Positions 4,800-13,511 of a DNA stretch of 13,511 bases are shown one piece after another. A program made the translations under genes and the position numbers. Below the pieces are notes generated by a model. That model searched no databases and was not told where the DNA came from. It saw nothing but the letters and a program-made list of their open reading frames with translations. The stretch's first letter is position 1. Every line of letters begins with the position of its first letter. The DNA comes from a virus (taxonomy: Duplodnaviria > Heunggongvirae > Uroviricota > Caudoviricetes), in IMG/VR virus record IMGVR_UViG_2711768010_000006. The stretch is one strand, 5' to 3'.

Positions 4800-7700
4800 A
4801 TGGGTAAAGGCAGCAGTAAGGGGCATACCCCGCGCGAAGCGAAGGACAACCTGAAGTCCACGCAGCTGCTGAGTGTGATCGATGCCATCAGCGAAGGGCC
4901 GGTTGAAGGTCCGGTGGATGGATTAAAAAGCGTGCTGCTGAACAGTACGCCGGTGCTGGACAGTGAGGGGAATACCAACATCTCCGGCGTCACGGTGGTG
5001 TTCCGGGCAGGTGAGCAGGAGCAGTCACCGCCGGAGGGATTTGAATCCTCCGGCTCCGAGACGGTGCTGGGTACGGAAGTGAAATATGACACGCCGATCA
5101 CCCGGACCATCACGTCGGCAAACATTGACCGACTGCGTTTTACCTTCGGTGTACAGGCACTGGTGGAAACCACCTCAAAGGGAGACAGGAATCCGTCTGA
5201 AGTTCGCCTGCTGGTTCAGATACAGCGTAACGGTGGCTGGGTGACGGAAAAAGACATCACCATTAAGGGCAAAACCACCTCGCAGTATCTGGCCTCGGTG
5301 GTGGTGGATAACCTGCCGCCGCGCCCGTTTAATATCCGGATGCGCAGGATGACGCCAGACAGCACCACAGACCAGCTGCAGAACAAAACGCTCTGGTCGT
5401 CATACACCGAAATCATCGATGTGAAACAGTGCTACCCGAACACGGCACTGGTCGGCGTACAGGTGGATTCGGAGCAGTTCGGCAGCCAGCAGGTGAGCCG
5501 TAATTATCATCTTCGCGGGCGCATTCTGCAGGTGCCGTCGAACTATAATCCGCAGACGCGGCAATACAGCGGTATCTGGGACGGAACGTTAAAACCGGCA
5601 TACAGCAACAACATGGCCTGGTGTCTGTGGGATATGCTGACCCATCCGCGCTATGGCATGGGGAAACGTCTTGGTGCGGCAGATGTGGATAAATGGGCGC
5701 TGTATGTCATCGGCCAGTACTGTGACCAGTCGGTGCCGGACGGCTTTGGCAGCACGGAGCCGCGCATCACCTGTAATGCCTGGCTGACCACACAGCGCAA
5801 GGCGTGGGATGTGCTCAGTGATTTCTGCTCGGCGATGCGCTGTATGCCGGTATGGAACGGGCAGACGCTGACGTTCGTGCAGGACCGACAGTCGGATAAG
5901 GTGTGGGCCTATAACCGCAGTAATGTGGTGATGCCGGATGATGGCGCGCCGTTCCGCTACAGTTTCAGCGCCCTGAAAGACCGCCATAATGCCGTTGAGG
6001 TGAACTGGATTGACCCGGATAACGGCTGGGAGACGGCGACAGAGCTTGTGGAGGATACGCAGGCCATTGTCCGTTACGGTCGTAACGTCACGAAGATGGA
6101 TGCCTTTGGCTGTACCAGCCGGGGGCAGGCACACCGCGCCGGGCTGTGGCTGATTAAAACGGAACTGCTGGAGACGCAGACCGTGGATTTCAGCGTGGGT
6201 GCTGAAGGGCTTCGTCATGTACCGGGCGATGTCATTGAAATCTGCGATGATGACTATGCCGGTATCCGCACCGGCGGGCGCGTGCTGGCGGTGAACAGCC
6301 AGACCCGGACGCTGACGCTCGACCGTGAAATCACGCTGCCATCCTCCGGCACCACGCTGATAAGCCTGGTTGACGGGCAGGGGAATCCGGTCAGCGTGGA
6401 GGTCCAGTCCGTCACCGACGGCGTGAAGGTAAAAGTGAGCCGTGTTCCTGACGGTGTTGCTGAATACAGCGTGTGGGGGCTGAAGCTGCCGACGCTGCAC
6501 CAGCGATTGTTCCGCTGCGTGAGTATCCGTGAGAACGACGACGGCACGTATGCCATCACCGCCGTGCAGCATGTGCCGGAAAAAGAAGCCATCGTGGATA
6601 ACGGGGCGCACTTTGACGGCGACCAGAGCGGCACGGTAAATGGTGTCACGCCGCCAGCGGTGCAGCACCTGACCGCAGAAGTCACCGCAGACAGCGGGGA
6701 ATACCAGGTGCTGGCCCGCTGGGACACGCCGAAGGTGGTGAAGGGCGTGAGCTTCCTGCTTCGCCTGACCGTGGCAGCGGATGACGGCCGTGAGCGGCTG
6801 GTCAGCACGGCCCGGACGACGGAAACCACTTACCGCTTCACACAACTGGCGCTGGGGAACTACAGGCTGACAGTCCGGGCAGTAAATGCGTGGGGGCAGC
6901 AGGGCGATCCGGCGTCGGTATCGTTCCGGATTGCCGCACCGGCAGCGCTGTCGCGGATTGAGCTGACGCCGGGCTATTTTCAGATAACCGCCACGCCGCA
7001 TCTTGCGGTTTATGATCCGACGGTACAGTTTGAGTTCTGGTTCTCGGAAAAGCGGATTGCGGATATCAGGCAGGTTGAAACCACAGCACGCTATCTTGGC
7101 ACGGCGCTGTACTGGATAGCCGCCAGTATCAATATCAAACCGGGCCATGATTATTACTTTTATATCCGCAGTGTGAACACCGTTGGCAAATCGGCATTCG
7201 TGGAGGCTGTTGGTCAGCCGAGTGATGATGCATCCGGTTATCTGGATTTTTTCAAAGGCGAGATAGGGAAAACCCATCTGGCTCAGGAGCTGTGGACGCA
7301 GATTGATAACGGTCAGCTTGCGCCTGACCTGGCTGAAATCAGGACGTCCATTACGGATGTCAGCAATGAAATCACGCAGACCGTCAATAAGAAACTGGAA
7401 GACCAGAGTGCGGCAATTCAGCAGATACAGAAGGTTCAGGTTGATACAAATAATAACCTGAACAGCATGTGGGCTGTGAAGCTGCAGCAGATGCAGGACG
7501 GACGCCTTTATATCGCGGGTATTGGTGCCGGTATTGAGAACACCCCTGACGGCATGCAGAGTCAGGTGCTGCTGGCGGCGGACAGGATTGCGATGGTTAA
7601 TCCTGCGAATGGCAACACAAAACCGATGTTTGTTGGTCAGGGCGATCAGATATTCATGAACGACGTGTTCCTGAAACGCCTGACGGCCCCCACCATTACC

Positions 7701-8297
7701 AGCGGTGGAAATCCATCGGCATTTTCCCTGACTCCGGACGGAAAGCTGACCGCTAAAAATGCGGATATCAGTGGCAGTGTGAATGCGAACGCCGGGACGC
7801 TCAACAATGTCACGGTAAATGAAAACTGTACGATTAAGGGCATGCTGGAGGCGACTCAGGTCAGAGGTGACTTCGTTAAAGCTGTATCCAAATCATTTCC
7901 GAAACAGGCTGGTACGTGGGGTAACACGGAAACACCAAACGGGACGGTTACAGTCACCATAAGCGATGATCATAACTTTGACCGCCAGATTATTATTCCG
8001 CCCATTATTTTTAACGGTATAGCGTATGACGATCCGGGGAGCGGAAATAACCCAGGAGGCACGCGATACACGGGTTATGGTTTTGAAGTTCGCAAAAACG
8101 GCGTATTAATCGCATCCAGAGAAACTAAAGGTGCCATTCCCGGTAGTTACAGTGCAGTTATTGATATGCCTAGTGGTGGTGGTAGCGTCACTCTGGAGTT
8201 TAAGATTTTCCAGAAAGGCAATCAGGGGGCAGGCAATATCACCGACTGTACGGTGATTGTGACCAAAAAAGCGGCTTCCGGCATCAGTATTCGTTGA
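4800..8297 (+). CDS. J: Host specificity / central tail fibre protein J (lambda gpJ-like)
   Basis: 1165-aa ORF with a GGAG 8 nt upstream of the ATG. The N-terminal ~800 aa match my recollection of lambda gpJ closely ([34 protein letters not shown]...). A central block and the last ~150 aa look different from lambda, and the protein is 33 aa longer than lambda's 1132. Confidence 0.92.
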
Positions 8298-8367: not shown

Positions 8368-8967
8368 ATGCGTAAAGTTTGTGCAGCCATTTTGTCCGCA
8401 GCCATTTGCCTGGCCGTATCCGGTGCGCCTGCATGGGCGTCTGAACATCAGTCCACGCTGAGCGCGGGGTATCTTCATGCCCGGACCAACGTTCCCGGCA
8501 GTGATGATCTGAACGGGATTAACGTGAAATACCGTTATGAGTTTACGGATACGCTGGGGCTGGTGACGTCATTCAGCTATGCAGGAGACAAGAATCGCCA
8601 GCTGACCCGTTACAGCGATACCCGCTGGCATGAAGATTCCGTTCGTAACCGCTGGTTCAGCGTAATGGCGGGGCCGTCTGTGCGCGTGAATGAATGGTTC
8701 AGCGCGTATGCGATGGCGGGTGTGGCTTACAGCCGTGTGTCGACTTTTTCCGGGGATTATATCCGCGTAACTGACAATAAGGGGAAAACGCACGATGTGC
8801 TGACCGGAAGTGATGACGGTCGCCACAGCAACACGTCTCTGGCGTGGGGAGCTGGCGTGCAGTTTAACCCGACCGAATCCGTGGCCATTGATATTGCTTA
8901 TGAAGGCTCCGGCAGTGGCGACTGGCGCACTGACGGTTTCATCGTGGGTGTCGGTTATAAATTCTGA
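8368..8967 (+). CDS. lom: Lom outer membrane protein (Ail/Lom/PagC/Rck family beta-barrel)
   Basis: 199-aa ORF with a signal peptide (MRKVCAAILSAAICLAVSGAPAWA) and a C-terminal aromatic beta-barrel end (FIVGVGYKF). It matches lambda Lom in position, between J and stf. Confidence 0.9.
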   Translation: MRKVCAAILSAAICLAVSGAPAWASEHQSTLSAGYLHARTNVPGSDDLNGINVKYRYEFTDTLGLVTSFSYAGDKNRQLTRYSDTRWHEDSVRNRWFSVMAGPSVRVNEWFSAYAMAGVAYSRVSTFSGDYIRVTDNKGKTHDVLTGSDDGRHSNTSLAWGAGVQFNPTESVAIDIAYEGSGSGDWRTDGFIVGVGYKF

Positions 8968-9020: not shown

Positions 9021-9031
9021 GTGGGGTGAAT

Positions 9032-12000
9032 ATGGCAGTAAAGATTTCAGGTGTACTGAAAGACGGCACAGGAAAACCGGTACAGAACTGCACAATCCAG
9101 CTGAAAGCAAAACGTAACAGCACCACGGTGGTGGTGAACACGCTGGCCTCAGAAAATCCGGATGAAGCCGGGCGTTACAGCATGGACGTTGAGTACGGNN
9201 NNNNNNNNNNNNNNNNNNNNNNNNNNNNNNNNNNNNNNNNNNNNNNNNNNNNNNNNNNNNNNNNNNNNNNNNNNNNNNNNNNNNNNNNNNNNNNNNNNNN
9301 NNNNNNNNNNNNNNNNNNNNNNNNNNNNNNNNNNNNNNNNNNNNNNNNNNNNNNNNNNNNNNNNNNNNNNNNNNNNNNNNNNNNNNNNNNNNNNNNNNNN
9401 NNNNNNNNNNNNNNNNNNNNNNNNNNNNNNGGATTCCCGCCGTCACATGCCGGGACCATCACCGTGTATGAAGATTCCCGACCCGGTACGCTGAATGATT
9501 TTCTCGGTGCCATGACGGAGGATGATGCCCGTCCGGAGGCTCTGCGCCGTTTTGAGCTGATGGTGGAAGAGGTGGCGCGTAACGCGTCCGCAGTGGCACA
9601 GAACACGGCAGCCGCGAAGAAATCAGCCAGCGATGCCAGCACATCAGCCCGTGAGGCGGCAACCCATGCGACTGATGCTGCAGATTCAGCACGTGCAGCC
9701 AGCACGTCAGCCGGACAGGCCGCTTCGTCGGCTCAGTCAGCGTCTTCCAGCGCAGGAACGGCATCAACAAAGGCCACTGAAGCCTCAAAAAGTGCTGCCG
9801 CTGCAGAGTCCTCAAAAAGCGCGGCGGCTACCAGTGCCGGTGCGGCGAAAACGTTAGAAACGAATGCGGCAGCGTCACAACAATCAGCAGCCACTTCTGC
9901 ATCCACCGCGACCACGAAAGCGTCAGAAGCTGCCACCTCAGCCCGGGATGCGTCGGCTTCAAAAGAGGCGGCAAAATCATCAGAAACGAACGCATCATCA
10001 AGCGCCAGTAGCGCAGCTTCCTCGGCGACGGCGGCTGCAAATTCTGCGAAGGCGGCCAAAACGTCCGAGACGAACGCCAGGTCTTCTGAAACGGCAGCGG
10101 GACAGAGTGCCTCAGCTGCGGCAGGCTCAAAAACAGCGGCTGCGTCGTCTGCCAGCGCCGCGTCAACAAGTGCCGGGCAGGCCTCAGCCAGTGCCACCGC
10201 CGCCGGAAAATCGGCAGAAAGCGCCGCATCATCCGCTTCAACAGCCACAACGAAGGCTGGCGAAGCCACTGAGCAGGCCACGGCAGCAGCGAGGTCAGCT
10301 TCCGCAGCGAAGACATCCGAAACGAACGCGAAAGCGTCGGAAACCCGTGCAGAATCCTCAAAAACGGCTGCCGCATCGTCCGCCAGTTCGGCGGCGTCAT
10401 CGGCATCATCGGCGTCTGCTTCAAAAGATGAGGCGACCAGACAGGCGTCAGCAGCGAAGGGCAGCGCCACGACGGCATCCACGAAGGCGACAGAGGCTGC
10501 TGGTAGTGCGACGGCAGCAGCTCAGAGCAAAAGTACGGCGGAATCTGCAGCAACGCGCGCTGAGACAGCGGCAAAACGGGCAGAGGATATTGCATCCGCC
10601 GTGGCGCTTGAGGATGCGAGCACGACGAAAAAGGGGATAGTACAGCTCAGTAGTGCGACTAACAGCACTTCCGAGTCACTGGCGGCAACACCAAAAGCCG
10701 TTAAGGCCGCGTATGACCTGGCTAACGGGAAATACACCGCACAGGATGCAACGNNNNNNNNNNNNNNNNNNNNNGTGGCTGGATTCTCAGGGAGCATTTA
10801 ACCATCCATACTGGATGTGCAAGGGTTCCTGGTCTTATGGCAATAATAAAATCATTACTGATACTGGCTGCGGTAATATTCATCTCGCCGGAGCTGTCAT
10901 TGAAGTAATGGGGATAAAGTCAGCGATGACGATCCGCATTACCACTCCGACCACATCCAGCGGTGGCGGAACAACCAACGCCCAGTTTACCTATATTAAT
11001 CACGGAACAGATTATTCACCTGGCTGGCGAAGGGACTATAACTCCAGAAATAAGCCAACGGCATCAGAGATCGGGGCGCTACCGTCAGGTGGAACAGCAG
11101 TATCATCAGTTAATCTGGCTTCAAAAGGTCGGGTAGCCGCGCTGACAGACAATACGCAGGGGGCAGCAGGTCTTGAGTTATACGAGGTGTATAACAACGG
11201 ATATCCAACAGCGTATGGAAATATCATTCACCTGAAAGGGATGACAGCCGTTGGCGAAGGTGAGTTACTCATCGGCTGGAGTGGTACAAGCGGTGCTCAT
11301 GCTCCGGCATTTATTCGTTCACGACGGGATACGACCGACGCAAACTGGTCGCCGTGGGCGCAGCTTTACACCTCGGCTCATCCTCCTGCAGAGTTTTATC
11401 CAGTCGGTGCACCAATCCCGTGGCCATCAGATACCGTTCCGTCTGGTTATGCCCTGATGCAGGGGCAGACTTTTGACAAATCTGCTTACCCGAAACTTGC
11501 AGCCGCTTATCCGTCAGGCGTGATCCCTGATATGCGTGGCTGGACGATTAAGGGCAAGCCCGCCAGTGGTCGTGCCGTATTGTCTCAGGAACAGGATGGC
11601 ATTAAATCGCACACCCACAGCGCCAGCGCATCCAGTACGGATTTGGGGACGAAAACCACATCGTCGTTTGATTACGGCACTAAATCCACGAATAACACCG
11701 GGGCGCATACGCACAGTCTGAGCGGCTCTACAAGTTCAGCTGGGGCCCACCAACATAGTCAGACTGGGCCCAGAACGAATAGCGGGAGTCAACCTACTGG
11801 AATGTTTCCGGCAGGGAGTACTCAAGTTAGCGGGACTAATCAGGTTGGTATCAGTGGCTCATTAACCAGTGGCACCTCCCAATGGGTAGGTAAATCATCT
11901 TCAGAAGGAAACCATACACACTCACTGTCCGGCACAGCAGCATCTGCGGGTGCACACGCGCATACTGTCGGTATTGGTGCTCATACGCACTCTGTTGCGA

Positions 12001-12098
12001 TTGGTTCACATGGACACACCATCACCGTTAACGCTGCTGGTAACGCGGAAAACACCGTCAAAAACATCGCATTTAACTATATTGTGAGGCTCGCATAA
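9032..12098 (+). CDS. stf: Side tail fibre protein Stf, interrupted by two runs of N with a frame change across the second
   Basis: The N-terminus from the ATG at 9032 ([33 protein letters not shown]) matches lambda Stf; the GTG at 9026 in the ORF track is a less likely start. The middle is an Ala/Ser/Thr-rich repeat, followed by a tail fibre repeat motif ([41 protein letters not shown]). The C-terminal part (ORF 10653..12098, frame 0) ends with the His-rich segment and ...[22 protein letters not shown], as in lambda Stf. The two ORFs are one gene split by the N runs. Confidence 0.75.
9199..9430. other. Run of 232 N (assembly gap or masked sequence) inside stf
   Basis: Directly visible in the sequence. 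The flanking coding frame is preserved across it. Confidence 0.99.
9598..10620 (+). repeat. Coding tandem repeat region in the stf shaft (Ala/Ser/Thr-rich, recurring K-T/S-S-E-T-N-A units)
   Basis: Motifs such as [28 protein letters not shown] and [37 protein letters not shown] recur at irregular spacing of roughly 30-80 aa. The low-complexity GC-rich DNA also opens spurious ORFs in other frames and on the minus strand (9733..10482, 9828..10595, 9864..10640). Boundaries are approximate. Confidence 0.6.
10754..10774. other. Run of 21 N inside stf, with a reading-frame change across it
   Basis: Directly visible. The upstream stf frame ends at a stop at 10799-10801, while the downstream stf frame is the one opened by ORF 10653..12098. 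Confidence 0.99.
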
Positions 12099-12679
12099 TG
12101 GCATTCAGAATGAGTGAACAAGCACGGACCATAAAAATTTATAACCTGCTGGCCGGAACTAATGAATTTATTGGTGAAGGTGACGCATATATTCCGCCTC
12201 ATACAGGTCTGCCTGCAAACAGTACCGATATTGCACCGCCAGATATTCCGGCTGGTTTCGTGGCTGTTTTCAACAGTGATGAGTCATCGTGGCATCTCGT
12301 TGAAGATCATCGGGGTAAAACGGTTTATGACGTGGCTTCCGGCGACGCGTTATTTATTTCTGAACTCGGCTCATTACCGGAAAATGTCACCTGGTTATCC
12401 CCGGAAGGGGAGTTTCAGAAGTGGAACGGCACAGCCTGGGTGAAGGATACGGAAGCAGAAAAACTGTTCCGGATCCGGGAGGCGGAAGAAACAAAAAACA
12501 GCCTGATGCAGGTAGCCAGTGAGCATATAGCGCCGCTTCAGGATGCTGTGGATCTGGAGATCGCAACGGAGAAAGAAACCTTGTTGCTGGAAGCTTGGAA
12601 AAAGTATCGGGTGTTGCTGAACCGTGTTGATACATCAACTGCACCGGATATTGAATGGCCAGTAGCACCTATAGGGTAA
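12098..12679 (+). CDS. tfa: Tail fibre assembly protein Tfa (chaperone)
   Basis: 193-aa ORF beginning [54 protein letters not shown], matching lambda Tfa. Its start shares 1 bp with the stf stop (TAATG). Confidence 0.9.
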
Positions 12680-12759
12680 ATTCGTAATGATTACCTAAAT
12701 ACGTTATTCTTTTGTTAAAAAAGTGATTTTGCTATAGGTAGGGAGTATGTTCTTGGATT

Positions 12760-12795
12760 AAGAATAAAAAATCGCCATGAAAGAGCTTCATGGCG
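12760..12795 (-). terminator. Rho-independent terminator reading on the minus strand
   Basis: Perfect 9-bp inverted repeat CGCCATGAA / TTCATGGCG (12773-12781 and 12787-12795) with a 5-nt loop. On the minus strand the hairpin is followed by ATTTTTTATTCTT (reverse complement of 12760-12772). Confidence 0.55.
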
Positions 12796-13428
12796 AGTAC
12801 ATAAACGTACAAAATGTGATGAAAGTAGAGTGGCGTAAGCCACTATATTAAGATATGACAATAGCGAAGAAAAGTAAATAACATTTTATGGACGTTTAAT
12901 TGTTAATTATAAAAACTAGAGTGCCCGATATTGTTTATCTTGCTTTAAAATAATGTACTCAAACCAAATTTTTGAGCTAAAAGCTCAAATAATATAAATG
13001 CAATAATAATGTTTAATAAGACAATTAGCTTGCTTTGTATTTTCATTTCGGAATACTGTTAAGTAACTTTGATGACCCTAACAATAGATCGGAATTTTCT
13101 TAGAGTCAATGGTCACTGTTTTTGCTTGCAAAGCAAATGTTTTGGTGGTTATAAGTCGTCTTAATATAGTCACGCATGCAACTTGTTCCATGCGGAGATT
13201 AAAGATTGGAATATAACGCGAAGATGGAATTAAATTACATTTGCAATAATTAATTTATTATTACTCAATAATTACCGATATTATTATTGTAAATTAATCA
13301 TTAGAATGCAAAAAGAAATGTAACGGCAAAATAAGAGGACGATAGCTGAGAAAAAAGCGTGCTTTCCCAATCTGGGGCAAATCACGTCTGAATGACACCT
13401 GAAAACAGGTGGTAGCCTCAAGAAGGCT

Positions 13429-13511
13429 GGTGATGCTGCCAACTTACTGATTTAGTGTATGATGGTGTTTTTGAGGTGCTCCAGTGGCTTCTGTTTCTAT
13501 CAGCTGTCCCT
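13429..13511 (+). mobile_element. IS1 insertion sequence, left end only (continues beyond the window)
   Basis: The sequence GGTGATGCTGCCAACTTACTGATTTAGTGTATGATGGTGTTTTTGAGGTGCTCCAGTGGCTTCTGTTTCTATCAGCTGTCCCT matches, as far as I can recall it, the IS1 left terminal inverted repeat and the start of insA. Confidence 0.9.
13484..13511 (+). CDS. insA: IS1 InsA, first 9 codons only (GTG start; truncated by the window edge)
   Basis: GTG GCT TCT GTT TCT ATC AGC TGT CCC translates to MASVSISCP, the InsA N-terminus, at the expected distance from the IS1 inverted repeat. Confidence 0.7.

Follow-up and report, generated by a model that had tools for sequence, protein, structure and literature searches.

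Is the side tail fibre gene at this locus broken, or has an intact gene been badly written down? The window, by which we mean the whole 13,511-nt stretch of viral DNA that was analysed, carries an stf gene with its ATG at 9032 (MAVKISGVL...) and its TAA at 12096-12098, the latter overlapping the tfa ATG at 12098. A regular-expression scan of the window finds exactly two runs of N, and they are the two that the sequence-only reading had reported: 232 N at 9199-9430 and 21 N at 10754-10774. The list of open reading frames likewise agrees with its description of the frame, which is kept over run 1 and goes from 2 to 0 over run 2. The frame-2 ORF (9026..10801) reads through the first run and ends 8 codons past the second, and the frame-0 ORF (10653..12098) provides the remainder of stf. 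Counted at face value the gene comes to 3067 nt, or 1022.3 codons, which matches the earlier estimate of about 1020 amino acids. In the recorded gene calls stf appears as three fragments together with an antisense ORF that is probably spurious.

Our answer, which we hold with high confidence, is that this is an ordinary lambda-like prophage stf, and that its split and its broken frame reflect two mis-sized scaffold gaps and not phage biology. The features on which the argument turns are these (L numbers denote related loci):

4800-8297: J.

8368-8967: lom.

9032-12098, plus strand: stf, directly 3' of J and lom and 5' of tfa.

9032-9198, plus strand: 5' piece of stf, codons 1-55 and two bases of codon 56, from the Stf N-terminal (collar) domain (ATG and translation; the called gene 9026-9198 matches PF08400; no indels relative to L001 and L112).

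9199-9430, no strand: scaffold gap 1, 232 N that probably stand for about 28 nt (the rest of codon 56 and QYSVILLVE), judging from the spacing in relatives, PF08400 and PDB 9e7m.

9431-10753, plus strand: middle piece of stf, which completes the N-terminal domain and contains the Ala/Ser/Thr-rich shaft as well as the first Phage_fiber_2 motif (read in the frame of the 5' piece; aligns to L112; PF03406 in an intact relative).

10754-10774, no strand: scaffold gap 2, 21 N that probably stand for about 242 nt (the second Phage_fiber_2 motif and the first part of the Mu S'-like domain), judging from the spacing in relatives, with the hidden sequence taken from L112, L049, L014 and L120.

10775-12098, plus strand: 3' piece of stf, with the Mu S'-like middle domain, the Collar domain, the His-rich T4 gp37/lambda-type tip and the stop codon (frame-0 ORF; L112 identity; PDB 8ju3 and 2xgf; Pfam Collar).

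12098-12679, plus strand: tfa, the tail fibre assembly chaperone gene (PF02413 Caudo_TAP, E 4.6e-44), which overlaps the stf stop (TAATG).

The window is the whole of WGS record CWVQ01000118.1 (draft assembly GCA_001250875.1, 13,511 nt), N runs included. Because the public record itself carries the same runs, these are scaffold gaps and not masks that were added later. When scaffolding pipelines link contigs through read pairs, they write N between them, and the size of such a gap is either estimated or unknown (PMC5320598). The first letters of the record lie within the tape-measure gene and its last 82 nt belong to an IS1 terminal repeat (IS1 from 13430); such ends are as expected for a short-read contig that stops at repeats. 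The gene order H-M-L-K-I-J-lom-stf-tfa matches that of lambda, and Tfa shares 92.7% identity with lambda Tfa (orf-194). On the 3' side of tfa the window has an AT-rich segment followed by the IS1 end; no invertase gene is present in the window.

We measured the spacing at each gap site in 123 related loci, drawn from complete E. coli genomes and IMG/VR contigs, with 30-nt anchors placed to the left and right of every N run and at most 3 mismatches allowed. The result is uniform. Both gap-1 anchors are present in 84 loci, always with 28 nt between them (84/84), and both gap-2 anchors in 66 loci, always with 242 nt between them (66/66). The earlier deduction that the sequence hidden by run 2 is not 21 nt long was therefore right. 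The lengths 28 and 232 both leave a remainder of 1 when divided by three, so that frame retention over run 1 is a coincidence with a chance of one in three. At gap 2 the difference between 242 and 21 is 221 nt, which leaves a remainder of 2; this fully explains, in window coordinates, the shift from frame 2 to frame 0.

The sequence-only reading had taken the retained frame at run 1 as a sign of masking or of a sized gap. That suggestion does not survive the 28-nt spacing, nor does it agree with the domain itself, which has no insertion when set against PF08400 or 9e7m. In an intact, near-identical relative PF08400 is matched over 1-134 of its 134 profile positions (E 1.4e-71), and the N-terminal 94 residues align without gaps to PDB 9e7m, the solved structure of Ur-lambda Stf residues 1-94. 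A scan of genome contigs for gap-1 flanks 217-247 nt apart found none. A true stretch of 232 nt at gap 1, which would place 68 extra residues in the collar domain, is on these alignments very unlikely. We also tried, and rejected, a reading of both runs as one-for-one masks: the public record carries them, and no relative shows a spacing of 232 or 21 nt there.

The two errors have opposite signs. Between the left and the right piece the record counts 1576 nt at face value, and the relatives have 1593 nt, a difference of 17 nt. As far as sequence comparison can place the pieces, the scaffold is correct overall and its sole misplaced part is the middle 1323-nt piece, which appears to sit some 204-221 nt too far to the right. 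The face-value length of about 1022 amino acids comes close to the true 1027 because the errors of +204 and -221 nt nearly cancel. We observe in passing that the run lengths resemble the true ones exchanged (232 versus 242, and 21 versus 28).

This geometry bears directly on the reading in which the N runs are faithful in length. The N-terminal domain would then have gained 204 nt in frame, the Phage_fiber_2 region would have lost 221 nt and with them the frame, and the gene would be a pseudogene like that of lambda PaPa. Such a reading can draw on the frame kept across the 232 N, on the precedent of a real stf frameshift in lambda (orf-401/orf-314; PMC12617516), and on the degraded state of the prophage 3' of tfa, where IS1 stands in the place at which relatives have a pin-type recombinase. 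Nevertheless, we consider it extremely improbable. Not one of the 84 loci departs from 28 nt and not one of the 66 from 242 nt, and the scanned genome contigs hold no gap-1 spacing of 217-247 nt. The near-cancelling of +204 and -221 fits a misplaced middle contig and not two independent mutations; moreover, the N would need to be centred exactly on both lesions, and the record is a draft scaffold.

A narrower alternative, raised by the sequence-only reading itself, was a real frameshift beside run 2. It fails on the visible flanks, which have no indels relative to intact genes. A programmed or real frameshift of the PaPa kind next to gap 2 was rejected on the same ground, the difference between 242 and 21 nt accounting for the shift.

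Filling the gaps from a relative gives an intact gene. Locus L112 (IMGVR_UViG_2700989234_000002) is a contig without N. The middle piece aligns to it over 1323/1323 nt with 2 mismatches, both synonymous, and 0 gaps; the 3' side is 100% identical over 1906 nt, and 831 nt downstream is likewise free of differences. Across the visible stf DNA, comparison with intact genes yields zero indels. When both runs are replaced by the 28 and 242 nt of L112, the result is a single 3084-nt ORF with one terminal stop, encoding 1027 amino acids, and this rebuilt product has 0 amino-acid differences from the L112 protein at the visible residues. An intact relative of 1008 amino acids is annotated in the complete E. 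coli genome RM14723. The original proposal of one stf gene, cut by assembly gaps and probably intact, is thus upheld: the record is a draft WGS record, and filling its gaps restores the 1027-residue ORF. The hidden bases of this particular strain are presumably those of its relatives.

Could the three pieces instead come from the stf genes of different co-resident prophages, misjoined by read pairs into a chimeric scaffold? Segments of stf are multi-copy in most E. coli genomes, greedy scaffolders can misjoin (PMC5320598), and the gap sizes are badly off. We nonetheless regard a chimera as highly improbable, for the same three pieces are contiguous and free of N in the independent assemblies L112, L014 and L120, at 99.6-100% identity. 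In addition, the order and orientation of the pieces are colinear with all relatives, and the overall span is right to within 17 nt.

The identity of the sequence at gap 2 raises a further question, which is whether an intact gene might hold there a number of 132-nt Phage_fiber_2 units other than that of the 242-nt form. Unit number does vary in some related loci (L041, L024, L063, L087 and L100), which have 2-4 tandem 132-nt copies. However, these multi-copy loci have another downstream module, and every locus with the right flank of the window (66/66) has 242 nt. The same 242 nt stand at gap 2 in L112, L049, L014 and L120, all of them near-identical across the middle piece. A different unit number in this strain is hardly credible. 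Taking together the ways in which the N runs could hide a real strain difference, namely an inactivating lesion (the 204-nt collar insertion, a deletion at the Phage_fiber_2 junction that breaks the frame, or both) or another number of 132-nt repeats, we leave them a small chance.

We next consider why the assembly broke at these places. The sequence-only reading had put both gaps in or beside the repeat region and had blamed assembly collapse in the repeats. The first part fails for gap 1, which covers codons 56-66, inside the conserved N-terminal PF08400 domain and about 55 codons ahead of the Ala/Ser-rich shaft. Gap 2 begins directly 3' of the first Phage_fiber_2 motif, and hides a diverged second copy and the start of the next domain. 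The second part, collapse in intragenic repeats, is not supported at either gap. The 'repeat shaft' is a degenerate repeat at the protein level; Tandem Repeats Finder reports two tiny DNA arrays only; the two Phage_fiber_2 copies share 77% DNA identity; and there are no exact words of at least 12 nt common to the hidden pieces and the remaining L112 locus.

Copies elsewhere in the genome are a better candidate. In E. coli genomes, a 5' stf query finds a median of 2 places per genome and at most 14, and a gap-2 query at most 8. It is likely, from the genomes of relatives, that stf paralogues in co-resident prophages caused the breaks. Among related draft contigs 18 of 149 contig ends fall inside stf, at many different places, 2 of them in the stretch hidden at gap 2 and 0 at gap 1. 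This scatter supports a general fragility of stf and not a site-specific cause.

The sequence of events that we propose is a simple one. A short-read draft scaffold would have left two stretches of stf unassembled and written them as N runs of the wrong length, with 232 N in place of about 28 nt and 21 N in place of about 242 nt. The frame break would then be a coordinate artefact, produced by 221 missing nucleotides.

Known invertible fibre segments (Mu Gin/G, P1 Cin/C and e14 Pin/P) have 26-bp crossover sites of the gix/cix/pix type in inverted orientation, an alternative fibre C-terminus and a Din-family invertase. We looked for such a system and rejected the idea of an invertible segment with a crossover site under the 21 N, there being no such site in gap-free relatives and no invertase in the window. 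Specifically, no gixL/hixL match within 8 substitutions and no AAACCNNGGTTT core was found in the stf of the window, L001, L112 or L127, and no inverted fibre segment was found in the relatives, though pinR is present 3' of tfa.

The true gene would be one 3084-nt ORF encoding a 1027-residue trimeric fibre, whose N-terminal collar domain would attach it to the tail. Beyond the collar, the predicted order begins with an Ala/Ser-rich shaft, continues with two Phage_fiber_2 motifs and then a Mu S'-like domain, and ends in a His-rich tip that would bind the receptor and is probably folded with the help of Tfa. Several matches underlie this order. Residues 490-568 correspond to the last portion of the constant part of Mu S, residues 539-723 match the Mu S' variable part (PDB 8ju3, E 1e-85), and residues 794-1027 match the His-rich needle tip of T4 gp37 (PDB 2xgf, E 1e-81). 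In an intact relative PF03406 (Phage_fiber_2) is found twice, together with PF07484 (Collar). By its N-terminal domain, its gene position and its Phage_fiber_2 motifs and His-rich tip, stf is identifiable as the gene of a lambda-type side tail fibre.

The side fibres of lambda bind OmpC and make adsorption faster (PMC12617516). If it works like that of Ur-lambda, the mosaic fibre encoded here should attach reversibly to a receptor on the cell surface and likewise hasten adsorption.

The result matters for annotation hygiene only, and we see no new biology in the split of stf or in its frame break. A face-value reading would call stf a pseudogene. The lengths of N runs in draft scaffolds are untrustworthy even where the frame is kept; here both are about 200 nt off, in opposite directions.

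How does this fibre compare with known ones? Its product is an already known and common mosaic, which hundreds of E. coli genomes, as well as isolated phages, carry intact. Among the closest known counterparts is that of the isolated Escherichia phage PhiR68_2 (PV340576), whose Stf has 1025 amino acids against 1027 here, with 95% identity end to end, and in which the spacing at the two gap sites is likewise 28 and 242 nt. Many E. coli genomes encode a protein of the same kind, annotated as 'prophage tail fiber N-terminal domain-containing protein' (for example WP_024262868.1 in RM14723). PhiR68_2 and the E. coli relatives share the J - lom - stf - tfa order of the window and differ from it in two respects. 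Where the window has N runs they have sequence, and 3' of tfa they have a serine recombinase of the PinQ/PinR type, whereas the window has its AT-rich segment and IS1 end.

The lambda reference records stf as two parts, orf-401 and orf-314; the N-terminal ~400 residues of the protein described here are 73% identical to orf-401, and the C-terminal ~233 residues are 70% identical to orf-314. The split in lambda PaPa is a real frameshift mutation (PMC12617516). The two splits thus differ in kind, that of PaPa being a true mutation and that of the window, in our reading, an artefact of gap size. Ur-lambda Stf has 774 amino acids, and the protein of the window is about 250 residues longer. Its shaft is longer than that of lambda, it contains two Phage_fiber_2 motifs, and it has as an insertion a Mu S'-like domain that is absent from lambda.

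Phage Mu differs from the window in its switching apparatus: the window is without a gix/hix-like crossover site, an inverted alternative fibre segment or an invertase. The modules themselves are familiar ones. Those of Mu S/S' (PDB 8ju3 and 5yvq) and of the T4 gp37 tip (PDB 2xgf) appear here fused in one lambda-type side fibre.

The two runs of N in the side tail fibre gene stf (9032-12098, plus strand) look as though their sizes had been exchanged. Their lengths, 232 at 9199-9430 and 21 at 10754-10774, approximate the true lengths of 242 and 28 nt, but exchanged; the runs sum to 253 nt and the true lengths to 270 nt, a difference of 17 nt. The pattern suggests that the middle contig was set about 210 nt out of place, or that the gap sizes were swapped in scaffolding.

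A frame change is seen in a near-identical draft contig (L014, IMGVR_UViG_2660238240_000004), where the stf frame shifts some 125 codons short of the gene's usual end. Alignment of the 3' part of this gene with the window shows one gap, near the contig end. Either an error in the sequencing or a genuine frameshift of the strain may account for the change.

The Ala/Ser-rich shaft of stf is crossed by long antisense ORFs of 249 and 255 aa (9733-10595, minus strand), and a gene has been recorded there:

9733-10470, minus strand: recorded gene call, 245-aa protein, no Pfam match

The lambda reference carries an equivalent antisense ORF, 'orf206b', opposite orf-401, the N-terminal part of its split stf. 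The antisense ORFs in the shaft are probably composition artefacts. The Rfam family IS009 (RF02111) is matched full-length at 12441-12639 on the plus strand (218 bits, against a gathering score of 117), entirely within the 3' portion of the coding sequence of tfa, the assembly chaperone gene, and the family model may just represent conserved tfa sequence.

Downstream of tfa (12680-13511) lies an AT-rich segment of about 750 nt with 28-33% GC and no long ORF. It does contain one small, strongly hydrophobic ORF:

12945-13046, minus strand: 33-aa ORF MKIQSKLIVLLNIIIAFILFELLAQKFGLSTLF

Its NCBIfam match to YncL, a small stress-response membrane protein, scores 25 bits, below the cut-off of 35. After the segment, at 13430, an IS1 terminal repeat begins, and 82 nt of IS1 run to the record end. 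Two close relatives, E. coli RM14723 and phage PhiR68_2, have a PinQ/PinR-type serine recombinase directly 3' of tfa, whereas the window has the AT-rich segment and IS1 instead, an arrangement common to the window, the related locus L002 and the near-identical gap-free contig L112.

Tail fibre genes of five related loci (L024, L063, L100, L087 and L041) carry a tandem Phage_fiber_2 unit of 132 nt (44 aa), in 2-4 copies with an exact 132-nt period; the modules downstream of these units are unlike those of the window. The stf of the window is a mosaic of lambda, Mu and T4 modules. Positions 10400-11200, which span the junction into the Mu S'-like domain, are covered to at least 80% in 647 complete E. 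coli genomes. For the 242-nt stretch hidden at the second gap the match is to the end of the constant part of Mu S, and this lambda-type fibre has a middle domain (aa 539-723; window 10775-11200 together with the 242 hidden nt that precede it) that closely resembles the phage Mu S' variable part (PDB 8ju3).
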